Counted from the first letter of the stretch, positions 975 to 26,163 are shown. The stretch: 64,000 nt of DNA from an uncultured bacterium (GCA_902779645.1 CACZCH010000011.1:7587-71586), one strand, 5' to 3'. The notes: generated by a model not told the origin, from the sequence alone. Made by a program: numbers and translations.

Positions 975-2050
975 AATTTTGAACAAGCATTAATCTTGCC
1001 GTATCCGTCTTTTATATACTCCATTTGATACATATATCTGCCGTCTGCATCGTATATTAGAGAACGCCCTATTGTCGGGTCGTAATAACCAAACCTCGTC
1101 ACTACATCATTATTTTTATCACTAAATTTTATATATTGAATATCTTCTGCTTTTGGATTTTTAACTTTCACACGTTCTGATAAGTGATTTAAAACATTTG
1201 GAACATTTTTTCTAAACTTATAATCAGGCTCGTTATTCCCGAATCTGAATGCTTCTGCCATTTCTACATTATTTCTGTAATCCACAACAGATTTCAATTT
1301 ATAACTCGGTTCCGATTGTTCCATATAAGTTTCTTCTACTATTTTTCTGAAATAAGGATTATAATGCTTTAATTTGTATCCAACAGCATTACCGTTCTTA
1401 TCAGTCAAAAAGAAACATTCTTCAACGATAGGCTTAACTCTTTTTAAATTATTATTATCAAAAGCAGTACTATATACCGTTCTTGTTTTTGGATTATAAT
1501 AGTATGCATTTGAATCAATAAAGAATATGTCTTTATATTCTATTTTTTGTTTTAAATATCTGGAAAGATTTTTTGCTCCAGCAAGCTTTTCTTCTAGGTT
1601 TAAATCCGTATTCATTTTATATGTATGAATCCCAAGACCCTTTTGTATCAAATCTTGACGTTTTAAATCCTGTACACAATTCTTATATTGCATTAAACCG
1701 CTAAATGAAGCAGGAAAATTCATCAATGCTCTTGCAACATATTCTTTCAATCCATATCTTGCAATATAATGGTTTAACTCTATTATAAAATGTCCGCCAT
1801 TATATCCGGCAGCAAGATTGAGTACATTATCATTTTCTGAACTGTATGTAAAACCTTGCGACAAGAGAAAATCATCCGCGTTAATGTTATTTTTTCTGCC
1901 AATAATATCCAAACGAGGCAAATCCGCTTTTTTTAGCTGCAATTCTTGTTGTTCGATTACTTTTTTGCTCATTTCACGAAGAGCCTTTTTTGTCATATGA
2001 GCTTGAAATGACTGATTAGAGTTTTGTCTGCCAACAGATAAAATTTTCAT
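971..2050 (-). CDS. Hypothetical protein (orphan, no Sec signal)
   Basis: Long ORF; ATG at 2050 preceded by AAAGGTG SD; N-terminus MKILSVGRQNSNQSFQA. Confidence 0.75.
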   Translation of the reverse strand: MKILSVGRQNSNQSFQAHMTKKALREMSKKVIEQQELQLKKADLPRLDIIGRKNNINADDFLLSQGFTYSSENDNVLNLAAGYNGGHFIIELNHYIARYGLKEYVARALMNFPASFSGLMQYKNCVQDLKRQDLIQKGLGIHTYKMNTDLNLEEKLAGAKNLSRYLKQKIEYKDIFFIDSNAYYYNPKTRTVYSTAFDNNNLKRVKPIVEECFFLTDKNGNAVGYKLKHYNPYFRKIVEETYMEQSEPSYKLKSVVDYRNNVEMAEAFRFGNNEPDYKFRKNVPNVLNHLSERVKVKNPKAEDIQYIKFSDKNNDVVTRFGYYDPTIGRSLIYDADGRYMYQMEYIKDGYGKINACSKF

Positions 2051-2143
2051 TAGAACACCTTTATTTAATATTTTCATGATATTAAAAGCCCCTAAAAAAA
2101 ATTTTTGCTAGTTAAAAATGAATATTGTTACAATTATAAAAAT

Positions 2144-2878
2144 TTAATTATAAATCTTAGTAATTTCTACTATTAATCCGTCTCCGTCAATATCAATTCT
2201 GGTTTTTTGCACACCGTTTTCCGCACCGTCATAAACAACTATTGATTGACCGTATTGATTTGTCAAAAGCATTTGAGATTTATTACCATTTACATAAGAA
2301 TATTCAACAATCATATCATAAACGCCATTTGGCTTTGTAATAATAGCAGACATAACTTTTCCGTTTAAATCTTTATATCTGTATTCTAAATTTCCGTTAA
2401 ATTGATTTACACCACCGTCTTCTATTATCCATTTGTTATAAAGCGCCATATTTTTGAGCTTCAAGGCAACCTGCTCCGGAGAAAAAACCTCTTGCTTTGG
2501 CAATATATCACCAAAATTTTGCATTCTTATTTTTTTATTTATCTTATCAATCTGTACTATCGCAACAATTGTACCTTTCCTATCTCTATACCTAATATTA
2601 CGAACAGGTTGTTCCGGATTTACGGTTCCGCCTATCGGCTGATAATCTCTTAGATAAAGTACTTCTTCATAATTATTAAGCGTTATTTCTGAATTAATAA
2701 TTTTATTTACCGCTTGGGAAGAATCTGATTTTTCTCGACTTAAAGACAAAAATCTAATTTCAGCGTCTGATAACTTGCCGTTTATCTGCAAATCCAATAA
2801 TACTTTTCTATTAATCTCGTCGTTTAATAAAAAGGTATTTATAGTATTATCTTTTTTTAAGTCTGCTGAGTCGACCAC
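2144..2878 (-). CDS. Hypothetical protein
   Basis: 244-aa ORF with SD-like GAGT upstream; beta-rich C-terminal half; no family recognised. Confidence 0.7.
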   Translation of the reverse strand: MVDSADLKKDNTINTFLLNDEINRKVLLDLQINGKLSDAEIRFLSLSREKSDSSQAVNKIINSEITLNNYEEVLYLRDYQPIGGTVNPEQPVRNIRYRDRKGTIVAIVQIDKINKKIRMQNFGDILPKQEVFSPEQVALKLKNMALYNKWIIEDGGVNQFNGNLEYRYKDLNGKVMSAIITKPNGVYDMIVEYSYVNGNKSQMLLTNQYGQSIVVYDGAENGVQKTRIDIDGDGLIVEITKIYN

Positions 2879-3051
2879 AGTAATACTCCTTAAACACTAT
2901 AAGCGTTTTATCCTTTTTTTTACTAATCAACTAATAAGACCAATGTTATACTTATATTATCGGCATATTTTTGTTAAACTTTAGCAATTTTTTGGAATTT
3001 GTTACAAAATTTTACATAAAAATTCCAAAGCAAACACTTTTTCTCAAAAAA

Positions 3052-5223
3052 CTATCCTTCAAAGTTACCTGCAAGTGTTCTTAAAGCTTTATTTTCTGCT
3101 CTATCAGCTCTGTTTAAAGCCGATTGCAGTCCTGAATTATCCCAAGTTTTTGAGATATTAGCCGCTCTTTGTGATGGTATATATGAACGTTTATTTGAAT
3201 TTTTTTCTGTATTTTGTTGTATTACGGAATTCTGCGACGGTATATATTGATAGCTGTCACGCTTACCTTTAGCATTTGATTTGATAACATTCTGCTGGTT
3301 AGGAACATAGGTATAATTATCTATTTTTTGCTGTAAATAGCTATTAAATTGAGCATTCTGAACATTTTGCGGTTGCGCTCCGTGATGTGCAATACCGTTT
3401 GCCTGAGAATTACTTTGCTGTGTTTGAACCGCTTTAGTTTGAGCTTCATTCTTTTTTCTCTGAGCTTCATACAATCTTTCAGTCAAATCTTCTTTCAAAA
3501 ACTTCTTTTGTTCTTTCTTTGCATCTTTAATCTCTTCTTCTTTCATAGAATCATAAGATTCACCGAAGATAAGTTTTATACACTTATTCAAAGCAGTATC
3601 GAGAACGCCCATGGTAAGCAAACCAAAAACAATTAACCTTGCGGGAACACCGAACAGGTTGCGCGGAAGATTTCTCATTTGAGAAAATTTAGTTGTTAAC
3701 CAATTACCTGTGTTATAAGCATCAACTCTGCCTAAATCAGGAGTGAGCCAGCCTGCAACTTTTCTTATTGCTCTTGTGTACCACTTTTGACCTTTTACTT
3801 CGCTATGCTTCTTTATGAAATTATTTACTTTATTTCTTTCCTCCAGCCAAGATTTATAATTTTTAAATCCTTCGCCTTCAATGCCGTTTTTCTTATTTTT
3901 ATCATTAATTTCTTTTAATTTATCTCTTATAGCCTGAATATCTGTATCTTTCATGCCTGCATATTTAGCACCGCCTATATGATGCATAATTTGTAATGCA
4001 AACGGGAATGTAAATACCCAAGAGATATGGTTAACAAGGTTGCTTACACCTGTGCCGACTTTTTGATTTGGTTCGGCTTTATGTACATTAATTGCTGTTT
4101 CAACAAATGCAGGTGCAATAAATAAAAGTACACCAAGCTTGCCTCCGCCAAAGGTCAAACCTCTGTGAACCATTTGCATAAAGCGTGACATAAATCTGCC
4201 AGTTGCAGTCTTTGCTCCTTCTTTTGTTAAACTGAATAACCTGTTAAATACACTGTCACAGCCAACTATACGTTTTGTCGGAGCTGTAAGAGGACCAATA
4301 TCAATTCCGAAAGGCTTGAATTCACCCATACCGACTCGAACTTTACTTCCGACTTTTCTGCAAGCCTCCTGAACTTCATTAATAATTTGAGTATTTCCAA
4401 TAGTATCTTTATGTACAGATTTAAGCCATTCAATATCTTTATTTCCAAAAGCTTTTAATACTTCTTTTTTAGTTCTTGCAACCCCTCCGTCTTCGGCTAG
4501 AATTATATTTTTGATTTCATCTTCTTTAAGACCGAGCCTTCTTAACTGAATATAACTTGATGCCTTTTCTTCTGAACTTAAAATATTCTTTAAGCTATTT
4601 AATTTATTCTTTTCTTCATTATCAAGTGCAAGTTTGTTAAGTTTAGCAAAGCCCTTGTCGTCTTCTAAGTGCAGTTCTTTTGTAATAAGGCTGAAGTCAT
4701 GCAAGATTCTTTGTCTTTGAGGTAGCATTTCTGACTTAACCAGTTCCATTTCAGGGTTTGTAGGAGTTTTCCATATAGCTTTTAAAACAGAGTTCTTTTC
4801 AATAAAACTTCCGCCTTTTTTGCCTGCAGATTTAAACCAGCCTAAAACCTTCTGCATGGGTTTTGATTGAACAAAATCTGAGTTTTCAATTTTATCACCA
4901 AAGTTTGTAACTTTTTTCAAAAGGCTCTTATCGTACTCTCCTCCGCATGAGGCAGTGTATTTATCGAGCAGCCAGCCGCACCCGAACCAAGTGAGAATAG
5001 AAGCTATCGGATGATCAATCAACGGTCCGAAGAAACCTTTTATTACCATTGAATACATTGGAGTTTCCTCGAGCATTTCTTTTATGCTTTTTCTTTCGCG
5101 AGGCTGATAATATTCAGGAATTCGAACAGCTTGAGCCTGGGGACGCAATGTAGTATTTGCGTTCCTTGGCGGAACACCATATCCGTTATTTCGATTATCA
5201 AAATTTTGAATACTTTGAGTCAC
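3052..5223 (-). CDS. Hypothetical multi-pass membrane protein with Q/N-rich C-terminus
   Basis: 723-aa ORF, several hydrophobic segments (ILTWFGCGWLL; LGVLLFIAPAF; WVFTFPFAL; LIVFGLLTMG), low-complexity tail. Confidence 0.75.
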   Translation of the reverse strand: MTQSIQNFDNRNNGYGVPPRNANTTLRPQAQAVRIPEYYQPRERKSIKEMLEETPMYSMVIKGFFGPLIDHPIASILTWFGCGWLLDKYTASCGGEYDKSLLKKVTNFGDKIENSDFVQSKPMQKVLGWFKSAGKKGGSFIEKNSVLKAIWKTPTNPEMELVKSEMLPQRQRILHDFSLITKELHLEDDKGFAKLNKLALDNEEKNKLNSLKNILSSEEKASSYIQLRRLGLKEDEIKNIILAEDGGVARTKKEVLKAFGNKDIEWLKSVHKDTIGNTQIINEVQEACRKVGSKVRVGMGEFKPFGIDIGPLTAPTKRIVGCDSVFNRLFSLTKEGAKTATGRFMSRFMQMVHRGLTFGGGKLGVLLFIAPAFVETAINVHKAEPNQKVGTGVSNLVNHISWVFTFPFALQIMHHIGGAKYAGMKDTDIQAIRDKLKEINDKNKKNGIEGEGFKNYKSWLEERNKVNNFIKKHSEVKGQKWYTRAIRKVAGWLTPDLGRVDAYNTGNWLTTKFSQMRNLPRNLFGVPARLIVFGLLTMGVLDTALNKCIKLIFGESYDSMKEEEIKDAKKEQKKFLKEDLTERLYEAQRKKNEAQTKAVQTQQSNSQANGIAHHGAQPQNVQNAQFNSYLQQKIDNYTYVPNQQNVIKSNAKGKRDSYQYIPSQNSVIQQNTEKNSNKRSYIPSQRAANISKTWDNSGLQSALNRADRAENKALRTLAGNFEG

Positions 5224-5362
5224 GATACAATAAACCTTTATAAACCTAACTATAAATATAAAGTCAATTTCTTCTCAAAAATTGCTTAAAAATCATGATT
5301 TGAAGGTTGTTTTGTAATAATTCTTAATATTTTTGTAATAAAAATAAATGACGATTTATTAA

Positions 5363-6580
5363 TTATTCTTCAACATCATCAAGCATTTTAACAAGTTTGT
5401 TTAATGAATTTTCGGTTGAATCTTTATTCAATAAAACAGATTGAACGGTCATGTTTACAGCATTATTTATATCTTTTTGATTCCTTCTCTGTTTCATTTG
5501 GGGGTAAATATTATTAACTTGCTTTGCACTGATTGAGCGAGCTTTCGATGCCATATCGGAATAATCGTTATAAAAACTGTTATTAAGAGCTGATGCATTA
5601 GTAGATATAATATTTGTCATTTTAGCAAGCTCAAGCTGGTTTTTAGCATTTGTTAAATACAAACAAAATTCTAATGCTTCTTTTTTCATTTTTGCTCTCT
5701 TAGGAATAACAAAATTCATAACAGAAACATCATTTTGACCAACAGGACCTTTAAATTGTTCCATAACATCTGTTTGTTCATAAACAGACGGTGCATTTTC
5801 TTTAATCATATTTAAGAAATTTGCTCCGCCCTGATAAAAAACAATTTTACCTGCCATATATTGTTCGAGAGCTTCTCTGTGTGTCATTGTGATTGATTCA
5901 GGCGGGATTAAATCTTTTTGATACAAGTTTTTAAACATATCAAAAACATTGATTGATGATTCGGAATTTAAATCGGAAAGTTCACTAACTCCGTATTTAT
6001 TAAGAATTTTCATCATCGTATCATTTTCTGTAATTGTGGGAAGATATGCATAAGCACCGGTGTTAGTCTTTATTTTTTCAGATATTGATGCTAATTCTTT
6101 ATAGGTTTTTGGAAGTCTGATTATGCCGGATTTGGCAAATAAATCTTTGTTATAAATTGTAATAGCACTTGTTGCGTACCAAGGAATTGAATACAATTTT
6201 TCTTTATACATCAGCGCTTTAATTATCTCAGGATTATAATCTTTAACAGCCTCGGGGTTTATTTCTTCAAGCGTACCTTTTTGAGCAAGAAGTGCCGAAA
6301 AATCCGGATTGAGATTGATTAAATCCGGCGGATTATCTGTCATAACAGCTGCAAGAGTTCTTTTTTCACCTTCGGAAAAAGGTACATCAACCCATTTTAT
6401 GTGCAAGTTAGGATGAGATTTTTCGTACTCTCGTATAACTTTGTACATATAATCAGAAAAATCACCCATTTGAAGTGTCCAAACAGTAATTTCTTTTAGG
6501 CTGTTTTCCTGTCTGATTGAACAGGCTGTTAGGCCTATAATTAAGATTGTAATAAGTACTAAAGTAAAAAATTTTTTCAT
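5363..6580 (-). CDS. ABC transporter extracellular solute-binding lipoprotein (sugar-binding family)
   Basis: Lipobox LTAC; PPDLI, LYSIPWY, IYNKDLF motifs typical of SBP_bac_1/8. Confidence 0.88.
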   Translation of the reverse strand: MKKFFTLVLITILIIGLTACSIRQENSLKEITVWTLQMGDFSDYMYKVIREYEKSHPNLHIKWVDVPFSEGEKRTLAAVMTDNPPDLINLNPDFSALLAQKGTLEEINPEAVKDYNPEIIKALMYKEKLYSIPWYATSAITIYNKDLFAKSGIIRLPKTYKELASISEKIKTNTGAYAYLPTITENDTMMKILNKYGVSELSDLNSESSINVFDMFKNLYQKDLIPPESITMTHREALEQYMAGKIVFYQGGANFLNMIKENAPSVYEQTDVMEQFKGPVGQNDVSVMNFVIPKRAKMKKEALEFCLYLTNAKNQLELAKMTNIISTNASALNNSFYNDYSDMASKARSISAKQVNNIYPQMKQRRNQKDINNAVNMTVQSVLLNKDSTENSLNKLVKMLDDVEE

Positions 6581-6611
6581 TATTATTCCCTTTTAAACTT
6601 ATTTACGTACT

Positions 6612-7013
6612 CTATATCTTTGCTGTCAGGTTTAAATCAATGTATTTAAATGTATTTAATAAAACTCCCGGCGGAAAGTTATATACATTATTGCATGGTG
6701 TTATTTTCAAAATCGCATTCGTTTTATCCACTTTTGAGATTGTTGCCAGATATTTGTTTCTGTTTGCGGAAAAAATTATATATCCGTTTGCACTCTGAAT
6801 TTCGTCTATGTTAAATCTGTTTGCAGATATTGAAGCTAATGTTAAATAAAATAGTTTCTCTTGATTAACTCCGAATATTTTTGTGCAGTTCTCAAACATA
6901 ATTTGTTGGGATACCGTAAGCGGATTTGGAGTCGGTTTTGGCTGTACTGCTATTTCTTCCGCCATAACATACGGAGTTATAAACAAGCTCAAAATTATTA
7001 AAAGTTCTCTCAT
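6612..7013 (-). CDS. Hypothetical exported protein
   Basis: 133-aa ORF with signal-peptide-like N-terminus. Confidence 0.7.
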   Translation of the reverse strand: MRELLIILSLFITPYVMAEEIAVQPKPTPNPLTVSQQIMFENCTKIFGVNQEKLFYLTLASISANRFNIDEIQSANGYIIFSANRNKYLATISKVDKTNAILKITPCNNVYNFPPGVLLNTFKYIDLNLTAKI

Positions 7014-7165
7014 TTTATACCTTCCTCTATTTTATAAGATAACATAATTGGCATTTCTTTTAATCCTATATAAGATGTAAAAGATTCTAAATACACAAAC
7101 TACACTATTTACATCATTTACGGAGGGTAAATAATATGGTATAATAGCCGTAATATATAAGTACA

Positions 7166-10291: not shown

Positions 10292-10297
10292 AACATT

Positions 10298-11599: not shown

Positions 11600-12374
11600 T
11601 AATTTCTCTAAATAGTGTTAAAAAGGATTTATCAACAAGAGGTTTTATTTTAATTTTAGATTTTCTTAACAGATTATAATGCAAATCTTCTATTATATTA
11701 ATATAATATTTGGTCGCAACAATAACATAATCAGGATTAATCTCTCTTATCTTTTCCGGTGGAATTGTTTTATATCCCAAAAATTCAGCTTCAGCATCCT
11801 TTGAAGAAAATCTCTTATCCGAAATGCCAATAACATTCAATTCTGAAATATCAAAATATTTTTTTATTAACTCTAAAAAAACACCTGCACCATAAAAAAT
11901 CACTCTTTTATTTTTAACTTTTTTTAGCAATTTAGGAAGTGTTTTATCAAACTTATTCTTCATTAGAAAATTATAATTTGATATCTCATCTTTTATGGTT
12001 TCTTTAAATAGAATTATAATTCTATCTTTGCATATATTAAAATCATATTCCAACAACTCAGTAATAGGTTTTGTATGTTCATTTGTTACAAGAACTACAT
12101 CAAAATCCATACTTGGAATTTGGTCGGTTTTAATTGCTTTATATCCGCAAAAAGTATCTGTATTCGTTTTATTAAATTTTTTATCTGCAATACATACAAC
12201 ATTCAATCTTTCTTTTATATTGTAATTTTGATTTAAAAGATTAAAGCTTGCTCCTGCACCATAAATCAGAACCTTTTTCCCTTCTAAACTTTTTATTATT
12301 TCTTCTGTTTCTTGCTTAAATTCCTCTGTTGAGGTTTTCATCTCAAAATATTTACTGACCATTATATTCTCCAA
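11592..12374 (-). CDS. Hypothetical protein made of two tandem Rossmann-like (YGAG) domains
   Basis: Two repeats K.V.(I/F)YGAG...I(A/S)DK.F...F.GYK.I. Confidence 0.75.
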   Translation of the reverse strand: MENIMVSKYFEMKTSTEEFKQETEEIIKSLEGKKVLIYGAGASFNLLNQNYNIKERLNVVCIADKKFNKTNTDTFCGYKAIKTDQIPSMDFDVVLVTNEHTKPITELLEYDFNICKDRIIILFKETIKDEISNYNFLMKNKFDKTLPKLLKKVKNKRVIFYGAGVFLELIKKYFDISELNVIGISDKRFSSKDAEAEFLGYKTIPPEKIREINPDYVIVATKYYINIIEDLHYNLLRKSKIKIKPLVDKSFLTLFREINV

Positions 12375-13656: not shown

Positions 13657-13684
13657 TCTTACCCCTCTCCCGCAGGGCGAGGGG
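13649..13684 (+). repeat. Second copy of the GC-rich REP-like element, inverted relative to the first
   Basis: TCCCTCACTCTTACCCCTCTCCCGCAGGGCGAGGGG; hairpin CCCCTC-TCCC-GCA-GGGC-GAGGGG. Confidence 0.85.
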
Positions 13685-13693
13685 CAAAAAACA

Positions 13694-14884: not shown

Positions 14885-14920
14885 AAAAACAGTATAGCAT
14901 AAATTTATTATTTAAATTAT

Positions 14921-16033
14921 TTACACCTTATATTTATCCCATCGGCATTCGTATTCTTTTACGGCTTCTGCGGCTTCTTCTTCCGTATATTTGTATCTTC
15001 CCAGACTCACCATAATTCTACCGTTAGATTCTTCCATCAGTTTTTTCTTGATTTTATATGGATACGTTTCATTCCCTTGCAAACCGCCTTCGTGAATGTT
15101 TCTAATTACATCATCAATATACTGTTGTGCGTATATAGGTATATTAGGGTGTCTTTTTATGTATTCGGGAAGGGGCATATTTTCTCTGTATCGGTTTCCG
15201 TCGGCTGTTGTTAAAAGGAAGTTTCCGATAGTATTCATTCCTCCTAATGATTCGGGTGTAACGTGTTCAATCGAACCGACTGAACCTATGAACAAACGTC
15301 TTGCAGCTTCTTCCTGTTCACGGCGTGAATACTTTACAACAAAAGCATTTTTACTGCTCCCTGATGTCGGAAGAAACAGAGCTTTATTTTTGATATCGGC
15401 GAAAATTTCTCTTTCATTTTCATTTGGAATAATTTCATCTAAAGACGCTAAAAACGTTTTTCTTTTAAATGAATCTTGAAGTTTGTTATCCAAAATAATT
15501 TGCCTGCACCTTGTTGTTTTGTGTCTCAGTTTCAGTGCAGTGCCAGGTGAGAGTTTTCTTGACATGACATCTACATCATCCAAAACATTAAATTCTTCCA
15601 GTTTAAGTTTTGTAAGACAGTTTGTATAAAGCATTTGAAGGCAATTTTGTATATTGTCCTTAGGGTTCAGCATAGAAAAATCTTTAAAAATTGCATACAT
15701 TGATTTTTCAGTAGGAAGCAGGTTGTCATAATATTGAGCCAAAAGTGCAACTATATCTTCGGCGGAATTACATTTTGCAAGATTTTTTTCAAAACCACGA
15801 AGTGCAGATCCTGGGATAATTTTGATACCACGATACGGGCAAGTCATATCTTTAAGCCGTCTTAAAGGTTTTCCGGCGGAAGTTGAACCTTGAAATGGAA
15901 TATCATAGTAATAATAGAGGTAATTTTCTTCGGTAATTTTGGGTTTAGGCGGATGCGAAAGTTTGGACACAGATGAATTGCTCCTATATAATATGTATGG
16001 TTTATAAAAACTCGTGACCGACTGAATACGCAT
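14921..16033 (-). CDS. Hypothetical protein with degenerate HNH-like domain
   Basis: CPYRG near N-terminus; EHVTPESLGG...N.......N.YR near C-terminus. Confidence 0.6.
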   Translation of the reverse strand: MRIQSVTSFYKPYILYRSNSSVSKLSHPPKPKITEENYLYYYYDIPFQGSTSAGKPLRRLKDMTCPYRGIKIIPGSALRGFEKNLAKCNSAEDIVALLAQYYDNLLPTEKSMYAIFKDFSMLNPKDNIQNCLQMLYTNCLTKLKLEEFNVLDDVDVMSRKLSPGTALKLRHKTTRCRQIILDNKLQDSFKRKTFLASLDEIIPNENEREIFADIKNKALFLPTSGSSKNAFVVKYSRREQEEAARRLFIGSVGSIEHVTPESLGGMNTIGNFLLTTADGNRYRENMPLPEYIKRHPNIPIYAQQYIDDVIRNIHEGGLQGNETYPYKIKKKLMEESNGRIMVSLGRYKYTEEEAAEAVKEYECRWDKYKV

Positions 16034-16121
16034 AAAAACTAATCTTAATCTATATTCATGATATCAAATTTTTTGACTCGGTGCAATATTATTAACATGA
16101 TATAATTTTATTGAGGTTTTT

Positions 16122-16756
16122 ATGTCAAGATATATTGCAATAACAGATATTCACGGAGAATTAGAAAAGCTGGAAAGCGTTTTATCACAGATTGATACTC
16201 AACCTGATGATATTTTTGTGTTGTGTTTATGGGAGATTATATAGACCGCGGGGGTAAATCAAGAGAGGTCGTTGACAGAGTAATCGAACAATCAAATTAC
16301 AACAAATGTGTTTACCTCATCGGCTCTCATGAATACGCAATGCTTCATGCAAAAACGGATGAATACTACGGCTGGCTTTATGACAATTACGGAGGACCAG
16401 CTACAACAAGAAGTTACGGCGGGTTTGATAATATTATGAAAATCCACGGTGATTTTTACAGAAACCTAAGGTTTTATTATTTAACTGATAAATACCTCTT
16501 TGTCCACGCAGGAATCAATCCTGACTATTCTTTAGAAGAGCAAGATGAAGTGGATTTGGTTTATATTAGAGGAAAGTTTATTTATTCAAAACATAATTTA
16601 CCTCAAAAAATCATTTTCGGTCATACGGAATTTGATAAGCCATTTATTGATGAATGTAAAATAGGTATAGATTTAGGGTGCGGTAAATATAGAAATGCTC
16701 ACCTTTGTGCTTTAATTTTAGATGAAAACGGAAAACAAGAATTTATTTATTCATAA
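16122..16756 (+). pseudogene. Metallophosphoesterase (Ser/Thr phosphatase family) frameshifted by a 5-bp duplication
   Basis: ATG at 16122 gives MSRYIAITDIHG; GDYIDRG, GSHE, FVHAG, GHT follow in another frame; TTGTG is tandem at 16216-16225. Confidence 0.85.
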
Positions 16757-16771
16757 AAATAGGAGAAAACC

Positions 16772-17242
16772 ATGAAAAAGATTTTTTTATCAACAATTGC
16801 ATTAGCGCTTGGAGTTATAATGAGCGGAAGTTTTGTTTTTGCAGAAGAAGCCGTTCAAGAGCAATCCAAAGTAGAATCTGCTTGGGAAACAGTTTCCGTG
16901 ATGTCGCAAGCTGCCGCTGAAAAAACCGCAGAAAGTGTAAAATCCGGTTCTAAAAAAGCAGGTAAAGCAATAGCAGAAGGTTCAAAAAATGTTGCAGATA
17001 AAGCAAAACCGCATATTAGCGGAGCGGAGAAAGTTAAAACAGCAACTTGCAGAGGTGCAAACAAAGTTTCAAGAGCAACTGCAAAAGGAATTAAAAAAGC
17101 AGGTGCTAAAATGCAAAAATCAGCAGAAAAATCAATCGAAAAATCTGATAAGTACTTAGAAGAAACTGCACCAAAATGTAAATGCAAATGCTCCTGCGGT
17201 GATAATTGCAAGTGCGATGAAAATAAAGAATGTGAAAAATAA
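16772..17242 (+). CDS. Exported Ala/Lys-rich helical protein with Cys-rich C-terminal tail
   Basis: AGGAG SD, signal peptide, tail CKCKCSCGDNCKCDENKEC. Confidence 0.75.
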   Translation: MKKIFLSTIALALGVIMSGSFVFAEEAVQEQSKVESAWETVSVMSQAAAEKTAESVKSGSKKAGKAIAEGSKNVADKAKPHISGAEKVKTATCRGANKVSRATAKGIKKAGAKMQKSAEKSIEKSDKYLEETAPKCKCKCSCGDNCKCDENKECEK

Positions 17243-17256
17243 TTCATAATTAACAA

Positions 17257-17285
17257 CAAAAAGGGCTCTAAAAAGAGCTTTTTTG
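17257..17285 (+). terminator. Rho-independent terminator
   Basis: AAAAAGGGCTCT-AAAA-AGAGCTTTTTTG hairpin with T tract. Confidence 0.75.
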
Positions 17286-17352
17286 TTCTAAAAAATTAAA
17301 ATCTATGATACAATTTAAACGTGTTATTAGTTAGGAGAATTAGAGAGAGCTT

Positions 17353-18552
17353 ATGAAAATAGATTGGAAATCAAAACAAACTAAAATTACTGCAGGTATT
17401 TTAGCCGTAATTCTTATACCAATATTGTGGAATCAAGGTAAAACTGCAATTACCGGCGCTTTGACAGCTTATATGATGGCTCAGCCCAAAACGGTAGAAG
17501 TGGCAAATCCCATATCAAAAGAGATTAAACCTGCCTATGAAACAACAGGAAGAATAGAAGCTCAAAAATCCGTTGATATTATAGCACGTGTAAGCGGTTG
17601 GCTTCAGGAAAGATACTTCCAAGAAGGAGACAGGGTTAAAAAAGGTCAAAAACTATTTCTTATTGAGCCTGATGAATATGCACTGGCAGCAATGACTGCA
17701 AGAGCAAGAGTTAACGAAAATTCTGCCGTATACAAAAATTCAGAAATTGATTTACATCGTGCAGAGCAATTACTGAAAGAAGATTTGGTAAGCCGAGAAT
17801 ATTATGACAACGCACTTACGCAAAGAAATAAAAACAGAGCAACTTTAGACGGTGCTATTTCTGATATGAACAAGGCAAATCTGAATTTAAGCTATACAAA
17901 TATAACCTCTCCAATGGATGGAAGAATCGGTAAAAAGAATATTTCAGAAGGTAATTATGTAACACCTTCAAGCGGTGTTCTTGCACAAATTTATACAACA
18001 AACCCGATGAAAGTTACATTTCCGTTGAAAAGCGGCGATTTTATAGAACTGAAAAAATACTTTAAGGATAAAAAGAACGAAAATCCAAGCCTTGATAATA
18101 GTGTGTCTATTCTTTTGGGTCTTTCTGACGGTTCAACCTATGAACAGGAAGGTAAAATAGAATTTGTAGATAACAAAGTTGATGAAAACACCGGTACAGT
18201 TACAATGAGAGCTATTTTTGAAAATCCTGATGAACTGCTTGTCCCCGGAGATTACGTTAATGTAACAATAAGAATTAATAAACCTCAAAAAGTTATGCTA
18301 ATACCGCAATCCGCTACAAAAACTGACGTTGGAACTGGGTATTATGTTTGGGTAGTTAAAGACGGTAAAGCAGAAAAAAGAGATATTGTAGTAAATGAAA
18401 ACTACGAAAATAACTGGATTGTGGAAAAAGGACTGGATTACAATGATGTTGTTGTTATGAAAGGTATTCAAGACATCTATAAATCAGGTCAAAAGGTAAA
18501 AACAAAAGCTTATAAACCTGATAGCGCCGAAAAAAAAGAAGATAAAAAATAG
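17353..18552 (+). CDS. RND efflux membrane fusion protein (AcrA-like)
   Basis: ARVSGWL, FQEGDRVKKGQ.LF, I.SP.DGRIG, N.VD..TGT...RA.F.NP...L.PG motifs. Confidence 0.92.
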   Translation: MKIDWKSKQTKITAGILAVILIPILWNQGKTAITGALTAYMMAQPKTVEVANPISKEIKPAYETTGRIEAQKSVDIIARVSGWLQERYFQEGDRVKKGQKLFLIEPDEYALAAMTARARVNENSAVYKNSEIDLHRAEQLLKEDLVSREYYDNALTQRNKNRATLDGAISDMNKANLNLSYTNITSPMDGRIGKKNISEGNYVTPSSGVLAQIYTTNPMKVTFPLKSGDFIELKKYFKDKKNENPSLDNSVSILLGLSDGSTYEQEGKIEFVDNKVDENTGTVTMRAIFENPDELLVPGDYVNVTIRINKPQKVMLIPQSATKTDVGTGYYVWVVKDGKAEKRDIVVNENYENNWIVEKGLDYNDVVVMKGIQDIYKSGQKVKTKAYKPDSAEKKEDKK

Positions 18553-18556
18553 TTTT

Positions 18557-18578
18557 GTCGGGTTAAAACCCGACCTAT
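18557..18578 (-). repeat. GTAG-family-like REP palindrome
   Basis: Minus strand reads ATAG-GTCGGGTT-TT-AACCCGAC; perfect 8-bp stem. Confidence 0.6.
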
Positions 18579-18611
18579 ATGCTGATAATAAGATTTCTGA
18601 GGATAAAAAAA

Positions 18612-18893
18612 ATGAAAATAAATAAAATCTCAAATCAAAACTTTCAGGGAAAAGTTATTGGCTGTTCGCACCTAAAACCAAAACAAAAAGAAGTTTTTAG
18701 GCAAGTTATTCCTTGCCTTGAAAATATGATTAAAGATAAAAATTATGATTTATTTATAAATTTATCTTACGGAAATGAACTAAGAATTTCTACGGGGAAA
18801 ATACCTGCTTATTCCGTAATAGATTCAAATAGCCCTGCTATATGGATAGACAGAGCAAAAAATATTATTAAATTTACTGAAAATAACATATAG
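18612..18893 (+). CDS. Small hypothetical protein inside the RND operon
   Basis: ATG at 18612, MKINKISNQNFQG...; 93 aa. Confidence 0.6.
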   Translation: MKINKISNQNFQGKVIGCSHLKPKQKEVFRQVIPCLENMIKDKNYDLFINLSYGNELRISTGKIPAYSVIDSNSPAIWIDRAKNIIKFTENNI

Positions 18894-18969
18894 GTTAATA
18901 AAAAGCCTAATTGCTATGAGCTAATATTCATCGCAACGACAGATAGATAGAAGAAAAAGGAAAAAGAGA

Positions 18970-21900
18970 ATGGCGATTAATAAAGAAGATTTATATTTTT
19001 TCATTAAGAAACCGAGATTTGCGGTTGTAATATCAGTGATTATAGTAATCTTAGGTTTACTTTCACTATTTGGACTTCAACAGGAAAAGTATCCTAACAT
19101 TACACCTCCGCAGGTTACAATATCAGCTTATTATCCCGGTGCAAGTGCATCTGTTATTGAATCTTCTATAGCTTCGCTTCTTGAATCTCAGCTTAACGGT
19201 GTTAAGGATATGATTTATATGTCCTCAACCAGTTACGACGGAGCTTATAACTTAAATATATATTTTAAAACAGGTACTGATAATGATATCAACCTGATGA
19301 ATGTCCAAAATAAACTTCAACAGGTTCAATCACTTTTACCGCAAGAGGTTATGCAGCAAGGATTAACTGCGGAAAACAAAGTAGGCGGTGCGGGTGCCAT
19401 TATCTTAAACCTTGCATCTGATAACGAATCTTGGAATCAGCTTGATTTAACAAACTACGCTAATATTTACGTTAAAGATGCCATAAAAAGAATTAACGGT
19501 GTAGGTTCTGTTAACGTATTTGGTGCAGATGATTATTCTATGCGTATTTGGCTTGACCCTGCAAAACTGGCAAGTTACAAGGTTACAATTGCAGAAATCC
19601 AAAATGCAATAAGAACCCAAAATGTTCAACTTTCAGCAGGAGCTTTAGGTGACAAGCCGACAAACGCAAATCCAAGTTTAAAGCTTTCACTTCTTACAAA
19701 AGGAAGACTTCAGACACCTGAAGAATTCGGAAATATAATAATTCGGTCTAACAAAGACGGCTCAAAATTGAGACTAAAAGAATTATCCAGAGTTGAGTTG
19801 GGCGCAAAATCTTATTCTATGTTCGGTATAGTTGACGGTAAACCTGCTGCTTTAATTCAGGTTATGCCATTACCCGGTGCGAATACGGTTGAGATTTGTA
19901 ATAATATCTATAAAACGATGGATGAACTCTCTCAGACGCTTCCTGATTCATTAAAACTTGATATTATGATGGATAGCTCAGTATTTATTAATGAATCAAT
20001 GGATGAAGTTGAGTTTACAATTCTTTTAACTTCATTAATCGTAATATTAATTATATTTGTATTCTTAGGTGATTTTAAAGCAACTTTAATTCCTTGTGTA
20101 ACGATTCCGGTATCGTTAGTCGGTACATTTATTGCTTTAAAAGCATTAGGTATGTCATTGAACCTCCTAACCCTTTTCGCGTTAGTTCTTGCGGTTGCGG
20201 TTGTAGTAGATGATGCGATTGTTGTAATCGAAAACGTCAAACGGCATATTGAGGACGGAAAATCAGCGCTTGAGGCAACCCAAATTACAATGGGTGAAGT
20301 TGGCGGATCGCTTGTTGCAATGGCTGCCGTTCTTATGGCGGTATTTGTTCCGATGTGCTTTATGAGCGGTTTATCAGGTACTATGTATAAACAATTTGCT
20401 GTTTGTATCGCTGTATCAATTGCATTCTCTGCGGTTTGCGCTTTGTCACTTTCTCCTGCAATGTGCTCGATAATCTTAAAACCTGCTAAAAAGAAAGAAA
20501 ATGATAAATTAGCTTGGGTAAAAACTGCAAAAGAATACATAAATAAAGGACTTGAAATTTTCAATGAAAAGTTTGATAAACTAACTGATTATTATATAGA
20601 ACTTGTTAAAAAATTTGTTCACGATAAAAAACTTACAATAATTACGTACGTTGCAATAGTTCTTTTGATGCTTGGTTTATTCAAGGTTATTCCAACAGGA
20701 TTTATTCCTGATGAGGATCAGGGTATGTTAATCTCAGTTGTAACACTTCCTGACGGAGCTTCATTAAACAGAACAGAAGCTGTATGTAACAAATTTATCA
20801 GAGCCATAGATGGCATTGAAGGAATTGACAAAGACAGAGTAATTGCTTTTGGCGGGTTTGGACCGTCAAATCAGGCAACTATTGTTATTCAGCTAAAAGA
20901 ATGGGGTGAGCGCAAGGTAAATCCTATTGATTGGGTATTTCGTATAATTCAAGGCAGACAAACCGACCTTTCTCACAATGGAATTTTAACGGAAATATAT
21001 AAACGCACTGCTGATATTAATGAAGCTTCAATCTTTACACTTTCACCGCCGGCAATAGACGGTTTAGGTATGGCAGGCGGTTTTGAGTATCAGCTTATGT
21101 CAACAGGTAACGCAAGTGTTCAAGATCTTGCAGCTTTTGCAAATGAGTTTATTGCAAAAGCTAATCAAGATCCGGCTTTACAAAATGTTTATACACAATT
21201 CCAAGCTAACGTACCTCAGTATCAATTGGATATTGATTACGAAAAAGCTTTAGCTCAAGGCGTTGACTTAAATGAACTTCATAATACGCTTGCTTCAACC
21301 TTGTCATATTCATATATTAATGACTTTAACAAGCTGGGCAGGGTATTCAAAGTATTTATGCAGGCAGAGGGTGATTACAGAAACAAAATTGAAGATTTAC
21401 ATAAAATCTATGTTATGAATAAAAATGGACAACCTGTACCTATCATGACAATGATTACACCAAAACAAACCGTTGGCGCGGTTTCTATTACAAGGTTTAA
21501 CCAATTCCGTGCCGCTCAAATACAAGGTTCACCTGCAAATGGTAAATCCTCAGGTGATGCAATGAAGGCTATGGTTAATTTATCTAAAAAGAATTTACCA
21601 CACGACTACACTTTTGCATGGTCAGGAACATCTTTGCAAGAACTGGAATCATCGGGACAAACAGGTATTGTAGTCGGTTTTGCACTCTTATTTGTTTACT
21701 TATTCTTGGTAGCATTATATGAAAGCTGGATGATACCGGTTGCGGTACTTTTAATATCACCTGTCGCAATTGTAGGCGCATTAATATTCCAATTAATGAT
21801 GGGACAAGCGTTAGATTTGTATTCTCAAGTCGGTCTGATTACGTTAATCGGTCTTGCGGCTAAACAATCTATTTTGATTGTAGAGTTTGCAAAAGAAGAA

Positions 21901-22176
21901 CACGAAGCGCATGGTTTGAATATTTATGATGCGGCAATTAAGGCATCACTGTTGAGATTCAGAGCAATTATGATGACTGAAGCTGCATTTATCTTAGGTA
22001 TTTTACCATTACTGTTTGCTTCAGGCGCCGGTGCAAACAGCCGTATCTCAGTCGGTTCAACAGTAATCGGCGGTATGATTGTAGCAGCAACTTTAGGTAC
22101 TGTTTTAACTCCTGCTTTCTACGTAATAATACAAGATTTGGTTGATAAAAAATTTAATAACAGAAAAGAGGATTAA
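18970..22176 (+). CDS. RND multidrug efflux permease (HAE1/AcrB family)
   Basis: [47 protein letters not shown]. Confidence 0.95.
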
Positions 22177-22190
22177 CACAGCATAATACA

Positions 22191-22286
22191 TGTCATACTG
22201 AGCCATATATTCATTTTTGGCGAAGTATCTCGCCAAGGCTTGAAAAAGATTCTTCGGCTTTAAATAATTGTCACCTCAGAATGACA
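22191..22286. repeat. Palindromic intergenic element (TGTCAT.CTGAG ... CTCAGAATGACA type)
   Basis: Terminal inverted arms TGTCATACTGAG / CTCAGAATGACA and inner arms CGAAGTATCT / AGATTCTTCG. Confidence 0.75.
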
Positions 22287-22377
22287 CGCATAATAATAAA
22301 ACCAAACAAAAAGACGATATTAAGTAATTGATTTTTATGTATAATGAAGAAAATTACTAAGCATAGGAAAGAAGAGT

Positions 22378-23826
22378 ATGAGATTTAATAAAAAGATTTT
22401 AAGTTTAATAGTTTTGTCTTGCTTTGTATTAACCTCTGTTAGTACAGCAGAAGCTTTTTCTTTGAAGAAAAACAAAAATAATACGCAAGTTGTGACATTG
22501 CAAAAAAACAAAAAGAAACAGAAAAAAACGCAGGAAGAGCAGCCGCCTTATACAAACGAGGTTCACTCCGTATTTTCTTTGAATGACTGTATAGATAATG
22601 CTATTAAATATAATCCTGGCATTCAAGCTTCGATTTACAACGAAGATGTTTATAAATCACAAATCGGACAAGCCTGGGCTAATTATTTCCCTTCTTTAAG
22701 CGCAAGTTTGGAAGCTTCAAGAAGCGGTAATAAGTATATAGGAGGCAGTCCGTACGGCGGTTCTATGAGCCAATATACCACAATGGGATATGTACCGTCA
22801 GTTTCTGCCGATATGCTCCTGTTTGATTTTGGTAAGACAAAAGCAAGTGCTGATATGGCAAAAAGATATTATGAAGCTTCAAAAGAAAACACAAAAGAGA
22901 ATATAAACACAATAATCTACAACATTAAATCAACATACTATAATATTCTTTTTGCTCAAGCACAAGTTCATGTTTATGAAGATACCGTTGCTGATTATGA
23001 ACTCCAGTTGAATCAGGCATGGGGATTCTATCGCTACGGTACAAAACCGAAACTTGATGTTGTAACAGCTGAATACAACTTAGGTAAAGCAAAATTAAAT
23101 TTGGTTAAAGCAAAAAACGTCTTAGAAGTAGCAAAAGTTGAGTTATCTAAAATTATGGGTATGCCTGAATATACAAACTATGAACTTTCAGACCAGTTGA
23201 CTCTTAACCTTTTTGATATAACGGAAGAGGATGCCATAAAGATTGCTTTTGACGTTCGTCCTGAACTTATTTCAGCTCAAAAGAGCGCGGAAGCAGCAAA
23301 AATGAATCTAAGGGCAGCAAGAAGAGAATTCGCTCCTAACCTTGGTATATACGGAAGCTACGGTAACGGTATAGGAAACGAATACAATCTTCAATCGGGA
23401 CAAATCGGAGTCGGGCTTGCTTATAACGGCTTAAACCTTATGAGACTTAAAAAGCAGGTTGATGAGGCAAACGCTTCTTATAAAAAAGCAAAAGCTCAGT
23501 ATGAAGATACCAAACACGATGTTTATTTTAACGTTAAGAAAAACTACATGGATCTTGAAACAGACAGAGAAGCTATCGTGATTGCAAAACTTGCGCTTGA
23601 CCAAGCGAAAGAACAATACAGACAGGTAACAGGAAGATATAAAGCCGGAGTAGGTGATGCAATCGAACTTAAAGACGGTGAAAATACTTATTTGAATGCA
23701 CGTTTAGACTTTTATAATGCAATGCTAAATTACAATAACACAGCTGCAAGCTTAGAACGTGAAATCGGACTTCCTCTAAAACAAAAAGACGAAAAAGTCT
23801 TGAATGTTACAAAAGAAGATTTATAA
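22378..23826 (+). CDS. TolC-family outer membrane efflux protein
   Basis: Signal peptide, two OEP repeats, Y.AG.....EL motif; follows RND permease. Confidence 0.9.
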   Translation: MRFNKKILSLIVLSCFVLTSVSTAEAFSLKKNKNNTQVVTLQKNKKKQKKTQEEQPPYTNEVHSVFSLNDCIDNAIKYNPGIQASIYNEDVYKSQIGQAWANYFPSLSASLEASRSGNKYIGGSPYGGSMSQYTTMGYVPSVSADMLLFDFGKTKASADMAKRYYEASKENTKENINTIIYNIKSTYYNILFAQAQVHVYEDTVADYELQLNQAWGFYRYGTKPKLDVVTAEYNLGKAKLNLVKAKNVLEVAKVELSKIMGMPEYTNYELSDQLTLNLFDITEEDAIKIAFDVRPELISAQKSAEAAKMNLRAARREFAPNLGIYGSYGNGIGNEYNLQSGQIGVGLAYNGLNLMRLKKQVDEANASYKKAKAQYEDTKHDVYFNVKKNYMDLETDREAIVIAKLALDQAKEQYRQVTGRYKAGVGDAIELKDGENTYLNARLDFYNAMLNYNNTAASLEREIGLPLKQKDEKVLNVTKEDL

Positions 23827-23961
23827 GGGGGGTAAATATATTTTAGCCGGTTGAACACTTAAGGAGATTGGTGTAAGAAGTGTAGGGGTAAATGTATTTT
23901 AACCTGACGCTAGCCAGTAACGTGCATTTTAATGGAGAGAGGTCAACTATAAAGATTTTAC

Positions 23962-24032
23962 CGTCATTGCTGTACATGTCAAACAATTTGTACAAAAATG
24001 TAACTAATTATTTGACATGCAAAGCAATGACG
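23962..24032. repeat. Long imperfect palindrome (CGTCATTGC ... GCAATGACG type)
   Basis: Arms CGTCATTGC/GCAATGACG and CATGTCAAA/TTTGACATG. Confidence 0.65.
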
Positions 24033-24160
24033 TGATTTTTACAAGAGATTACCGTGTCACCTGTATTATCGCTTTTTACAATTACATGTAGAAAAATACT
24101 TTTTAGCTTAATATCTTTGCTCCCTATATACTTTATGTTATTATCAAATAGGAGGGACTT

Positions 24161-24520
24161 ATGTTTGAACTAAAAGCACAGATGTATTTTTCCGCAGCTC
24201 ATCACCTGCTTAATTATAATGGCAAGTGCGAAAATATGCACGGTCATAATTGGCTCGTTGAAGCCTTCGTTAGCGGAACAGAACTTGATAAAAGCAACAT
24301 CTTAGTTGATTATAAAGTTATTAAAAAACATCTTAAAGAGGTTTTGGATTATCTTGACCACAAAGATATAAATGAGCTTTCTGAATTCAAGGGTATCAGT
24401 CCGAGCAGTGAAGTTTTGGCTAAGTTTATTTACGAAAAGATGAAAGAAAGAATCCCTCAAACAAGCAAAGTTTCTGTTTGGGAAACTTCAACATCGTGTG
24501 CTTCATACTGGGAAGGGTAA
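24161..24520 (+). CDS. queD: 6-carboxytetrahydropterin synthase
   Basis: FSAAH.L..Y.GKC...HGHNW, LDH, PSSE.LA, VWET; strong GGAGG SD. Confidence 0.93.
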   Translation: MFELKAQMYFSAAHHLLNYNGKCENMHGHNWLVEAFVSGTELDKSNILVDYKVIKKHLKEVLDYLDHKDINELSEFKGISPSSEVLAKFIYEKMKERIPQTSKVSVWETSTSCASYWEG

Positions 24521-24526
24521 ATATAA

Positions 24527-25369
24527 ATGGATTTAATACAGTCAATTTTAATGGGTATAGTACAAGGATTGAGCGAATTTTTACCAATCTCCAGTTCTGC
24601 TCACCTTGTTTTTACATCCAATTTTTATAAAGTTTTTAAAGGAATCGAAATTGTTCAAGAATCAAACCAAGAAGTTTTTCTTGATATTATGCTCCATTTG
24701 GGAACACTAATTGCTGTTTTAATTTTCTTCAGAAAAGATATTATGGAGATTATAAAAGCGCTCTATTACGGTTTAAAGAACAAAGACTACGGTTCTAAAG
24801 AGTTTAAAACAGGATTATACATAATACTTGGTACGATTGTAACCGTTTTAATAGCTTTTCCTTTGAATGAAGTTGCTGAGTTTTTGGTATTTAAACCCGC
24901 AATTGTCGGAGGATTGTTAATATTCACAGGCTGTCTGCTTCTTTTCTCCGAATGGTGGGGGAAACGAATTCAAGATAAAAAAGATATAACCTTGAAAAGT
25001 TCTCTTCTAATAGCAATAGCGCAAGGTTTAGCTGCGCTTCCCGGGTTCTCTCGTTCGGGACTCACAATTGCAACAGGTCTTTTAAGCGGACACGACAGAA
25101 CAACAGCTGCAAGATATTCATTTTTGCTAAGTATACCGATTATCTTAGGTGCTTCTATGGTTTATCCGCTCGTTAAGCTCGATTTAGCCGAAGTTGTTAC
25201 GTATAATTGGATAGCAATAATTGTCGGGACAATAGTTTCAGGGATTGTCGGTTATCTTTGTATAAAATACTTCTTAAAATTTGTAGGCAGATTTTCTTTG
25301 GGTATTTTCGGATATTACTGTTTAATTATGGGTGTAGTAACCGCTGTATTTTTCAGCATAAATATGTAA
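24527..25369 (+). CDS. uppP: Undecaprenyl-diphosphate phosphatase
   Basis: GIVQGLSEFLPISSSAH, PGFSRSG, ARYSFLLSIP. Confidence 0.95.
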   Translation: MDLIQSILMGIVQGLSEFLPISSSAHLVFTSNFYKVFKGIEIVQESNQEVFLDIMLHLGTLIAVLIFFRKDIMEIIKALYYGLKNKDYGSKEFKTGLYIILGTIVTVLIAFPLNEVAEFLVFKPAIVGGLLIFTGCLLLFSEWWGKRIQDKKDITLKSSLLIAIAQGLAALPGFSRSGLTIATGLLSGHDRTTAARYSFLLSIPIILGASMVYPLVKLDLAEVVTYNWIAIIVGTIVSGIVGYLCIKYFLKFVGRFSLGIFGYYCLIMGVVTAVFFSINM

Positions 25370-25371
25370 TA

Positions 25372-26163
25372 TTAGATATGCTCAAATACAATATTGTTAT
25401 TTTTCCCGCTCAGAGGGCAGAAAAAGTCCTTTGCAAGCAGTTTTTTGTATAACTCTATTGCTTGATTATCAAATTCTCCGATAGCGAAAAGACTCCCTTT
25501 TTTTAGATTTCGATTTGCTGTGTAAATAACTTCATCAATATAATCATCACTTGTATACGGCAGTGCATTTCTGCTCATAACAATAGAATTACCGTTATCT
25601 TTAATGTTTTTTAACTCAGTTAAAATATCAGAACGTTTTATTATTAATTTTTCTTTTAATTCTTTTATAGGTTCGTAAGACGATATAGTATCAGATTCTG
25701 AAATATCATCTCCTTGAACCATTACAGAAACCTTCTTGTCTTTAAAATATTTTGTTAAATCATAACCGTAGAGTCTTAATGCTTCTGCAAATTCACTACT
25801 AAAAATATTAATTCTTCCGCTCCTTGCTGCAGCCAGTATTCTCTTATCTATATCAGAAGCAAAAACATTAGAAAACTTTGACTGTAACTCTTTCGGAACT
25901 TCTTCCATTACTGCTATTTTATATGAATAAGCTTCCGACAAATCCGAACACGCCAAAGAATAAGTGTTTACAACAGGTACATCTTTAAAATGAGGGACAG
26001 CATAACGTAATAAATCCCTCAAATCTATATCTTCTCTTAGAGTTTTGGAATATGTTTTTATAATCATTTTGCCGTAATGCTTGAAGTCTTTGTTAGCTTT
26101 TGGTGTATATTGTCTAAAACTGCTTTTAAAAACAGTCTGTTGATTTATCTTATGAATTTTCAT
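25372..26163 (-). CDS. CheR-like SAM-dependent methyltransferase-fold protein (degenerate)
   Basis: S.ACS..SEAYS, ASDID...L.AA..G, SRNALPY similar to CheR motifs; no chemotaxis genes nearby. Confidence 0.6.
   Translation of the reverse strand: MKIHKINQQTVFKSSFRQYTPKANKDFKHYGKMIIKTYSKTLREDIDLRDLLRYAVPHFKDVPVVNTYSLACSDLSEAYSYKIAVMEEVPKELQSKFSNVFASDIDKRILAAARSGRINIFSSEFAEALRLYGYDLTKYFKDKKVSVMVQGDDISESDTISSYEPIKELKEKLIIKRSDILTELKNIKDNGNSIVMSRNALPYTSDDYIDEVIYTANRNLKKGSLFAIGEFDNQAIELYKKLLAKDFFCPLSGKNNNIVFEHI

Follow-up and report, generated by a model that had tools for sequence, protein, structure and literature searches.

A phenylalanine-box N-terminal tag and its promoter mark a set of orphan proteins in an uncultured gut bacterium: a candidate address label outside the Sec route

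Several described systems single out a set of unrelated proteins by a short N-terminal peptide, and they form the background for the element considered here: a short, polar leader built around a phenylalanine (hereafter the tag), which opens four proteins encoded in a stretch of 64,000 nucleotides (nt) from an uncultured gut relative of cyanobacteria, a member of the Gastranaerophilales (GCA_902779645.1, CACZCH010000011.1:7587-71586; this whole stretch is called the window below). In Pseudomonas syringae, the hrp-box (HrpL) regulon comprises dozens of unrelated type III effectors, often enzyme-like. Like the tag set, it combines one dedicated promoter motif with an N-terminal signal of biased composition; its products, however, are injectisome effectors without a fixed sequence box, its promoter is unrelated in sequence, and no injectisome was found here. 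Chlamydia secretes enzymes of glycogen metabolism by type III, and these resemble the tagged set in that alpha-glucan enzymes occur as a spare copy with an N-terminal signal outside the general secretory (Sec) type. Chlamydiae, however, are intracellular and possess an injectisome. In Firmicutes, the Prp protease removes an N-terminal extension from ribosomal protein L27 and from phage capsid proteins, cutting between the last two residues of the motif LNLQFFAS. These extensions, like the tag, are short N-terminal peptides on unrelated proteins in which a Phe is followed by a small residue. That said, the present genome has no Prp gene (no PF04327 match at E up to 1) and its L27 has no extension, the profile match beginning at position 1 in a frame of 90 amino acids (aa), so that cleavage of the Prp/L27 type was discarded.

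The early flagellar subunits provide a further comparison. PMC8983047 describes a two-part export signal, exemplified by Salmonella FlgD, in which 2-SIAV-5 is combined with a gate recognition motif, 36-FLTLL-40. The same paper is reported to place the motif at least 30 residues from the N-terminus, call for at least 19 and optimally 24-26 residues between the two signals in Salmonella, and report that shortened substrates stall at the gate. The tag resembles such signals in having small hydrophobic residues at the N-terminal end (positions 3 and 6, within the first 3-7 positions, where an early flagellar signal requires a hydrophobic residue), in its disordered polar stretch, and in the lack of a cleavable hydrophobic signal peptide. 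The likeness to the gate recognition motif is partial: in 58% of tags the residue four places after the Phe is hydrophobic, compared with 35% in the background.

The assembly that holds the window amounts to 2.06 Mb in 40 contigs (33.5% G+C, 99.9% complete), and the tag is abundant in it. A strict regular expression matched 31 of 2652 start-proximal ATGs and 6 of 11582 internal ATGs, the latter serving as control (odds ratio 23, p 1.5e-17). An anchored profile, centred on the Phe, covering positions -8 to +5 and scanned over the first 62 residues, reached 12 bits or more at the N-termini of 68 genes, where 1.7 were expected from internal protein segments, and 8 bits or more at 101 N-termini, where 16 were expected. 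By these counts, about 70-85 genes, or 3-4% of the total, carry the tag. A histidine kinase with a borderline score of 11.1 bits has a Pfam match and was left out of the tag statistics.

The layout of the tag is M-x-I/V-x-x-I/V, a spacer of variable length, and then N/S/T-F-K/Q/R-G/A/S. Lys, Gln, Asn and Arg are the usual residues at position 2. Ile, Val or Leu occupies position 3 in 50 of 66 tags, and Ile or Val occupies position 6 in 28. The Phe box takes the form Ile/Thr(-2), Asn/Ser/Thr(-1), Phe(0), Lys/Gln/Arg(+1), Gly/Ser/Ala(+2), Lys(+3), with Gly, Ala or Ser at +2 in 61 of the 66. Between Met and Phe, Asn, Gln, Ser and Thr make up 49% of residues as against 21% in the protein bodies, and Asp plus Glu 3% as against 13%; hydrophobic residues account for 29% of the tag, compared with a background of 35%. 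The median position of the Phe is residue 14; it lies at or before residue 20 in 76% of tags and before residue 30 in 89%. Some tags are as brief as MINFKG or MINFKGK, and other examples of the set include MKINKISNQNFQGK and MKILSVGRQNSNQSFQAH. The Phe codons (54 TTT and 12 TTC) match whole-genome usage, and the small residue at +2 is specified by at least 10 different codons. Because the codons at the box vary, selection acts on the peptide rather than on the RNA, and AT-rich codon bias does not account for the box. A Shine-Dalgarno sequence is present ahead of the proposed start in most tagged genes.

The preliminary description of the window had drawn attention to four such N-termini, and translation finds all four where it placed them:

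2000..2050, minus strand: tag MKILSVGRQNSNQSFQA, which opens a 359-aa orphan (gene 971..2050); profile score 19.5 bits
971..1999, minus strand: body of the 359-aa orphan, without Pfam or NCBIfam family
15998..16033, minus strand: variant tag MRIQSVTSFYKP of a 370-aa protein (gene 14921..16033); profile score 2.7 bits
18612..18650, plus strand: tag MKINKISNQNFQG of a 93-aa orphan protein (gene 18612..18893); profile score 25.9 bits, the best in the window
26122..26163, minus strand: tag MKIHKINQQTVFKS of a 263-aa CheR-like methyltransferase (gene 25372..26163); profile score 7.6 bits

The leader MRIQSVTSF of the 370-aa protein had been called the weaker member, as its score bears out. None of the four has a Sec or twin-arginine translocation (Tat) peptide, again as proposed: there is no hydrophobic stretch in their first 40 residues. 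The CheR-like label also holds (Pfam CheR, E 2.4e-11). The HNH-like label given to the 370-aa protein does not, its HNH_5 match (E 0.025) lying under the family cut-off; its body is homologous instead to another tagged protein of the genome, MKILGIGLENPYRNKIQKTNNYAGQ, of 460 aa (BLAST 3e-15). The AlphaFold2 model of the CheR-like protein has a predicted local distance difference test (pLDDT) below 50 at residues 6-12, compared with 86 overall, and by this model the tag is probably flexible.

The tag is retained where the rest of the protein has diverged. Orthologues at 35-66% identity keep it. All 18 homologues of the 359-aa orphan, which are unnamed metagenome proteins only, open with the same kind of tag. 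Among 26 homologues of the CheR-like protein (37-66% identity), F12 is one of 28 invariant columns and S14 is nearly invariant, while the spacer has insertions and deletions. Orthologues of a tagged GH77 4-alpha-glucanotransferase in other genera retain the leader MKVLGINNxxTF(E/Q)RRP, and those of a tagged M16 peptidase retain (M/V)xRINSINSVNNY...FKG. The 93-aa orphan, which has no Pfam or NCBIfam match, has only 2 homologues among 5.8 billion proteins.

How far the tag extends was gauged by scanning a sample of about 200 kb from each related genome. Another genus of the same family gave about 4 tags, another family of the order 2-3, and family f11 at least 3, including a tagged GH77 copy; families f12 (which lacks FlhA), f14, f15, f16 and f18 gave none or one doubtful tag. 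By the same profile the present genome has about 6.6 tags per 200 kb; compared with the lower figures in its relatives, the tag set is expanded here. A description of the tag was not found in Pfam, NCBIfam or the literature searched, and the same is true of the promoter described next; isolated leaders and protein N-termini gave no match in Pfam-A or NCBIfam at E up to 10.

Many tagged genes share a promoter as well as a leader. The k-mer TAGCAAA lies upstream of 19 of 88 tagged genes and of 51 of 1693 others. It begins a 32-nt motif that continues with a T-rich run and ends in ACGGGTTTTATA, or in short form TAGCAAA-N12-GGGTTTTATA. With a matrix cut-off of 14 bits, there are 83 sites in the genome and 4 in the reversed genome used as control. 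A downstream gene is present at 77 sites, and the profile finds the tag in 28 of these genes, compared with 2.7% of the remaining genes (odds ratio 21, p 6e-22); by eye many more of these promoter-linked genes have short or variant tags. The distance from the start of the motif to the ATG is bimodal: 33-38 nt (mode 35) at 27 of the 77 sites, never 39-46 nt, and 47 nt or more, with a Shine-Dalgarno sequence, at the remainder. The ATGs at 33-38 nt suggest a transcription start near +35, which would leave about a third of the mRNAs leaderless. Matches in the window are as follows:

2079..2110, minus strand: regulon promoter TAGCAAAAATTTTTTTTAGGGGCTTTTAATATC, upstream of gene 971..2050; matrix score 34.2 bits, rank 5 of the 83 sites
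26168..26199, minus strand: weak copy of the regulon promoter ahead of the CheR-like gene; 14.6 bits, with the ATG 36 nt from the motif start
11849-11880, plus strand: weak match of 14.5 bits within an A/T-rich stretch, with no fitting gene downstream; probably a chance occurrence

At the first of these, an in-frame ATG at 2077 falls inside the -10 region, so the real start of the 359-aa orphan is probably the ATG at 2050, which has a Shine-Dalgarno-like AAAGGTG upstream. The 36-nt distance at the second suggests that the mRNA of the CheR-like gene is probably leaderless. The gene for the 93-aa orphan has no promoter site of its own and starts 59 nt after gene 17353..18552.

Elsewhere, the motif stands ahead of tagged genes in one genome from a different genus (6 matches in 200 kb) and in one from a different family of the order (3 matches in 200 kb, with 2 in the reversed sequence of that genome as control); it was not found in samples from six other families of the class. 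As to what might read it, the genome has eight sigma-70-type genes, including one of FliA/WhiG type and one of SigB/SigF/SigG type. Cyanobacterial SigF-type promoters have TAGGC at -32 and GGGTAA at -12. Like these, the regulon motif consists of two blocks that start about 20 nt apart, a TAGC-type followed by a GGGT-type, though the sequence differs in detail and the motif is absent from the pilin genes of this genome. By this analogy the SigB/SigF/SigG-type sigma factor is a candidate reader of the tag-regulon promoter. Its gene, at C2:134540-135382, is followed on the same strand by genes for an A24 prepilin peptidase and a 136-aa tagged orphan, the three together spanning C2:134540-136708. 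That peptidase was considered as a processing enzyme for the tag and set aside, the tags having no prepilin features.

The bodies behind the tag are, as the preliminary description had supposed, largely unrelated: an all-against-all BLAST of 37 tagged bodies yielded only two small paralogous groups, one of which joins the 370-aa window protein with the 460-aa protein mentioned above. Pfam was run on the 37 largest tagged proteins besides those of the window. Matches were obtained for a GT1 glycosyltransferase, the M16 peptidase, the GH77 4-alpha-glucanotransferase, an amylase-like protein, an M3 peptidase, a dikinase-like protein, an AAA ATPase, an amidohydrolase, a small DSP-type phosphatase, two GNAT acetyltransferases and a multi-helix-turn-helix (HTH) protein, besides the histidine kinase with the borderline score; the rest of the 37 had no family match. 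The early proposal that the leader is a lineage-specific tag on degenerate enzymes stands in its first part, the signature being real, restricted to the lineage and selected at the protein level, but its second part fails as a generalisation, since the M16 peptidase has an intact HFLEH zinc site and the GH77 enzyme scores 192 bits. Both of these enzymes have an untagged paralogue, which in the case of M16 carries a classical Sec signal peptide, here and in related genera. These pairs suggest that the tag marks a second, differently handled copy.

A separate family of about 6 tagged paralogues, 215-265 aa long, is found at C6:49278, C1:158838, C13:20807, C1:153318, C1:153952 and C2:177463. In its members a minimal tag (MINFKGK, MITFQGR, MISFKGR) leads into the conserved stretch (K/R)xxxIRxADxIxRxxxxxYPxISxS, and the two that were scanned had no Pfam match.

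The tag does not conform to the common N-terminal signals. A Sec (type I) signal would have a basic N-region, a hydrophobic core of about 10-15 residues and a small-x-small cleavage site, and the hydrophobic stretch is missing here. Nor is there an Arg-Arg before the Phe or a hydrophobic region, as in a Tat signal (S/T-R-R-x-F-L-K); the residue ahead of the Phe is Asn, Ser or Thr, and the one behind it Lys, Gln or Arg. In a class III prepilin signal, where a short basic leader ends in Gly before Phe/Met-Thr-Leu-Ile-Glu and about 20 hydrophobic residues, the order is different: the Phe of the tag precedes the small residue, and no hydrophobic segment comes after. The genome does contain six true pilin-like genes with G-F-T/S-L-x-E, which are distinct from the tags. 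Cleavage after the small residue in the manner of a double-glycine leader would place Lys, Gln or Arg at -2 and Asn, Ser or Thr at -4, whereas a double-glycine leader has Gly-Gly, Gly-Ala or Gly-Ser at -2/-1 and is hydrophobic at -4, -7 and -12; a lipoprotein signal does not fit either.

The most likely reading of these observations, though it falls short of probable, is that the tag is a lineage-specific, non-Sec sorting or export signal for a co-regulated set of proteins. Under such a scheme the products of the regulon would be handed, by virtue of the tag, to a single sorting or export machine, and the most plausible reader would be a gate component of the flagellar-type III export family. 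The sequences show the tag itself, its position and conservation, the regulon and the M16 pair; both the sorting function and the identity of the machine are things that we infer, and as part of the sorting reading, a flagellar-type reader is possible but rather doubtful. The genome has two FlhA proteins and, in addition, a soluble paralogue of the FlhA C-domain. Two flagellar-type gene sets are present: a canonical fliPQR-flhB-flhA cluster on contig C9, and a second cluster outside the window at C1:216581-222547 that reads fliE-fliF-(346-aa gene)-fliH-flhA2 with a sigma-28-like promoter ahead. Other genera of the family hold only the FlhA2 type. According to a 2026 preprint, most Gastranaerophilales have only part of the flagellar genes, and the preprint postulates that these serve in secretion.

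The soluble paralogue (C3:78224-79690) is a protein of 488 aa in which residues 136-479 match PF00771 positions 321-655, the FlhA cytoplasmic domain. In the 80 best-matching Gastranaerophilales loci it is mostly 74-92% identical, with about a dozen near 50%. Its spread, over the order plus family f11, matches that of the tag. In some genera it adjoins the tagged GH77: this was so in 7 of the 10 genomes sampled from this family, though not in the present one. The sample of family f15 gave weaker matches to it and no clear tags. Such joint spread follows phylogeny, and the paralogue is retained as reader only as a lead.

Several results weigh against a sorting signal read by flagellar export. 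Most tags do not obey the spacing rule that PMC8983047 gives for Salmonella early substrates: the Phe is found near residue 14 rather than at 30 or beyond, and the spacing falls below 19-26 residues. Sister families that have FlhA have few or no tags. Among 80 other loci, the downstream neighbours of the soluble paralogue are tagged in 8 of 56 cases, which is not an enrichment. Sigma-28 promoters (TAAA-N15-GCCGATA) precede FliD, FliE2 and the second rod gene set, but the tagged genes stand outside that regulon (TAAA-N15-GCCGATAA) in using the TAGCAAA promoter, and sigma-28 control of them was rejected on this difference. Finally, the tagged AAA ATPase, GNAT acetyltransferases, GT1, dikinase-like and multi-HTH proteins, together with an S-adenosylmethionine (SAM) methyltransferase, should be active only in a place supplied with ATP, acetyl-CoA, SAM, nucleotide sugars or DNA, which speaks against plain release into the gut lumen. 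The co-occurrence with flagellar loci that had been suggested as a check turns out not to discriminate. FlhA is present in all 81 sampled genomes of the order and also in the tag-poor sister families, so the presence or absence of flagella says nothing about tag function; one family without FlhA (f12) is without tags too.

Within the genome's own flagellar proteins, FliK has LDFGKIF, and FlgD, FlgE and FlgG have F-x-x-x-hydrophobic motifs. The fixed residues at +1 (Lys/Gln/Arg) and +2 (Gly/Ala/Ser), however, are seen in the tags only and not in the rod and hook proteins. Two genes of the flg cluster may be mentioned alongside. The first gene of the cluster, at C7:102666-103220, encodes an SLT lytic transglycosylase that has no signal peptide. 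Its start (GTG) is M-N-F-S-G, and residues 36-40, where a gate recognition motif canonically lies, are FQKIL; judged by this sequence, the flagellar export gate probably takes it as a FlgJ-like substrate. At C7:107237-107524, a 95-aa gene with the tag-like start MEIIKSQTSGVNSVQQFSA lies between the genes for the rod-binding protein and flgH/flgN, where flgM is often found; it was not accepted as FlgM, there being no Pfam FlgM match.

Among the alternatives, the one that survives best is that the tag governs processing or turnover, either as a propeptide cut at the Phe box or as a degron for ClpXP, Lon or FtsH, the products being activated or short-lived inside the cell. With a basic residue at +1 and a small one at +2, the box does resemble a cleavage site, and the tagged set itself includes M16 and M3 peptidases, whose families act elsewhere in the processing or breakdown of leader peptides. 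In the AlphaFold2 model the tag is disordered, and the dependence of tagged enzymes on cytoplasmic cofactors suits a fate inside the cell. Yet the two best-known systems of this kind are missing: Prp, as noted above, and ClpS, for which no PF02617 match was obtained at E up to 0.1 in this nearly complete genome while control genomes were matched, so that a ClpS N-degron was dropped as a candidate. A Phe at -3 is unfit for signal peptidase I, and the M16 pair, in which one copy has a Sec signal and the other a tag, points to location rather than turnover. Such a role is unlikely on balance.

Somewhat more unlikely still is a tag for localisation or assembly inside the cell, at a polysaccharide granule, a condensate, a cell pole or a protein compartment. 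The idea draws on the alpha-glucan enzymes in the set (the GH77, amylase-like, GT1 and dikinase-like proteins, with the small DSP-type phosphatase), on the cofactor-dependent enzymes, which an intracellular site would suit, and on the Asn/Gln-rich, low-complexity spacer, of a kind able to drive self-association. Most tagged proteins, however, are small orphans unconnected to glucans, and the tag has no amphipathic helix like that of microcompartment encapsulation peptides. Some tagged proteins, moreover, have a glycine-zipper membrane segment directly after the tag. Compartment genes did not turn up, though no search was aimed at them.

It is very improbable that the peptide is a by-product of the mRNA, the first codons being A-rich and unstructured for the benefit of translation initiation, especially on leaderless transcripts. 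The ATGs at 33-38 nt from the motif and the A/U-rich codons of Asn, Lys, Ile, Gln and Phe would agree with this. But the codons of Asp and Glu are A/U-rich too, and these residues are depleted fourfold; the amino acids of the box are kept through many different codons; genes that have an ordinary Shine-Dalgarno leader carry the tag equally; and orthologues all retain the Phe, although their spacers drift in length. Chance, or AT-rich codon bias at N-termini, which the preliminary description had itself named as the finding that would undo its motif, has next to no standing even in a genome of this low G+C content where many N-termini open MK(I), for it is refuted by the observed and expected counts, the internal-ATG control, the conservation of the tag in orthologues and its coupling to a specific promoter.

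Returning to sorting or export, the fullest version of that reading would be that Gastranaerophilales have an undescribed sorting pathway, in which a Phe-box signal and a TAGCAAA...GGGTTTTATA regulon, perhaps read by a SigF-like sigma factor, are joined to a reader derived from the flagellar gate (the second FlhA or the soluble C-domain paralogue). A few per cent of the proteome, cofactor-dependent enzymes included, would leave the cytoplasm of the producer by this pathway and possibly enter another cell. Taken as a whole, this is a speculative and unlikely proposition.

Gastranaerophilales are common in gut and rumen, yet the order has no cultured member, and most of its proteins are of unassigned function. 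New here are the tag-linked regulon behind a 32-nt promoter distinct from the sigma-28 type, its probably leaderless class, and the M16 pair of tagged and Sec-signal paralogues. With a tag that is present on 3-4% of the proteome, retained throughout the order and linked to a single promoter, about 80 orphan genes can be approached together, and a common fate is predicted for their products, be it the same location, the same route or the same timing. Tag and promoter alike can serve, as they stand, as rules for annotating these genomes. Judged by its sequence, the tag looks like an undescribed protein address label. If it is indeed an export signal read by a reduced flagellar apparatus, it would add a sequence-defined signal of type III-like kind, which is rare, and would explain why most members of the order, according to the 2026 preprint, keep flagellar export genes without complete flagella.

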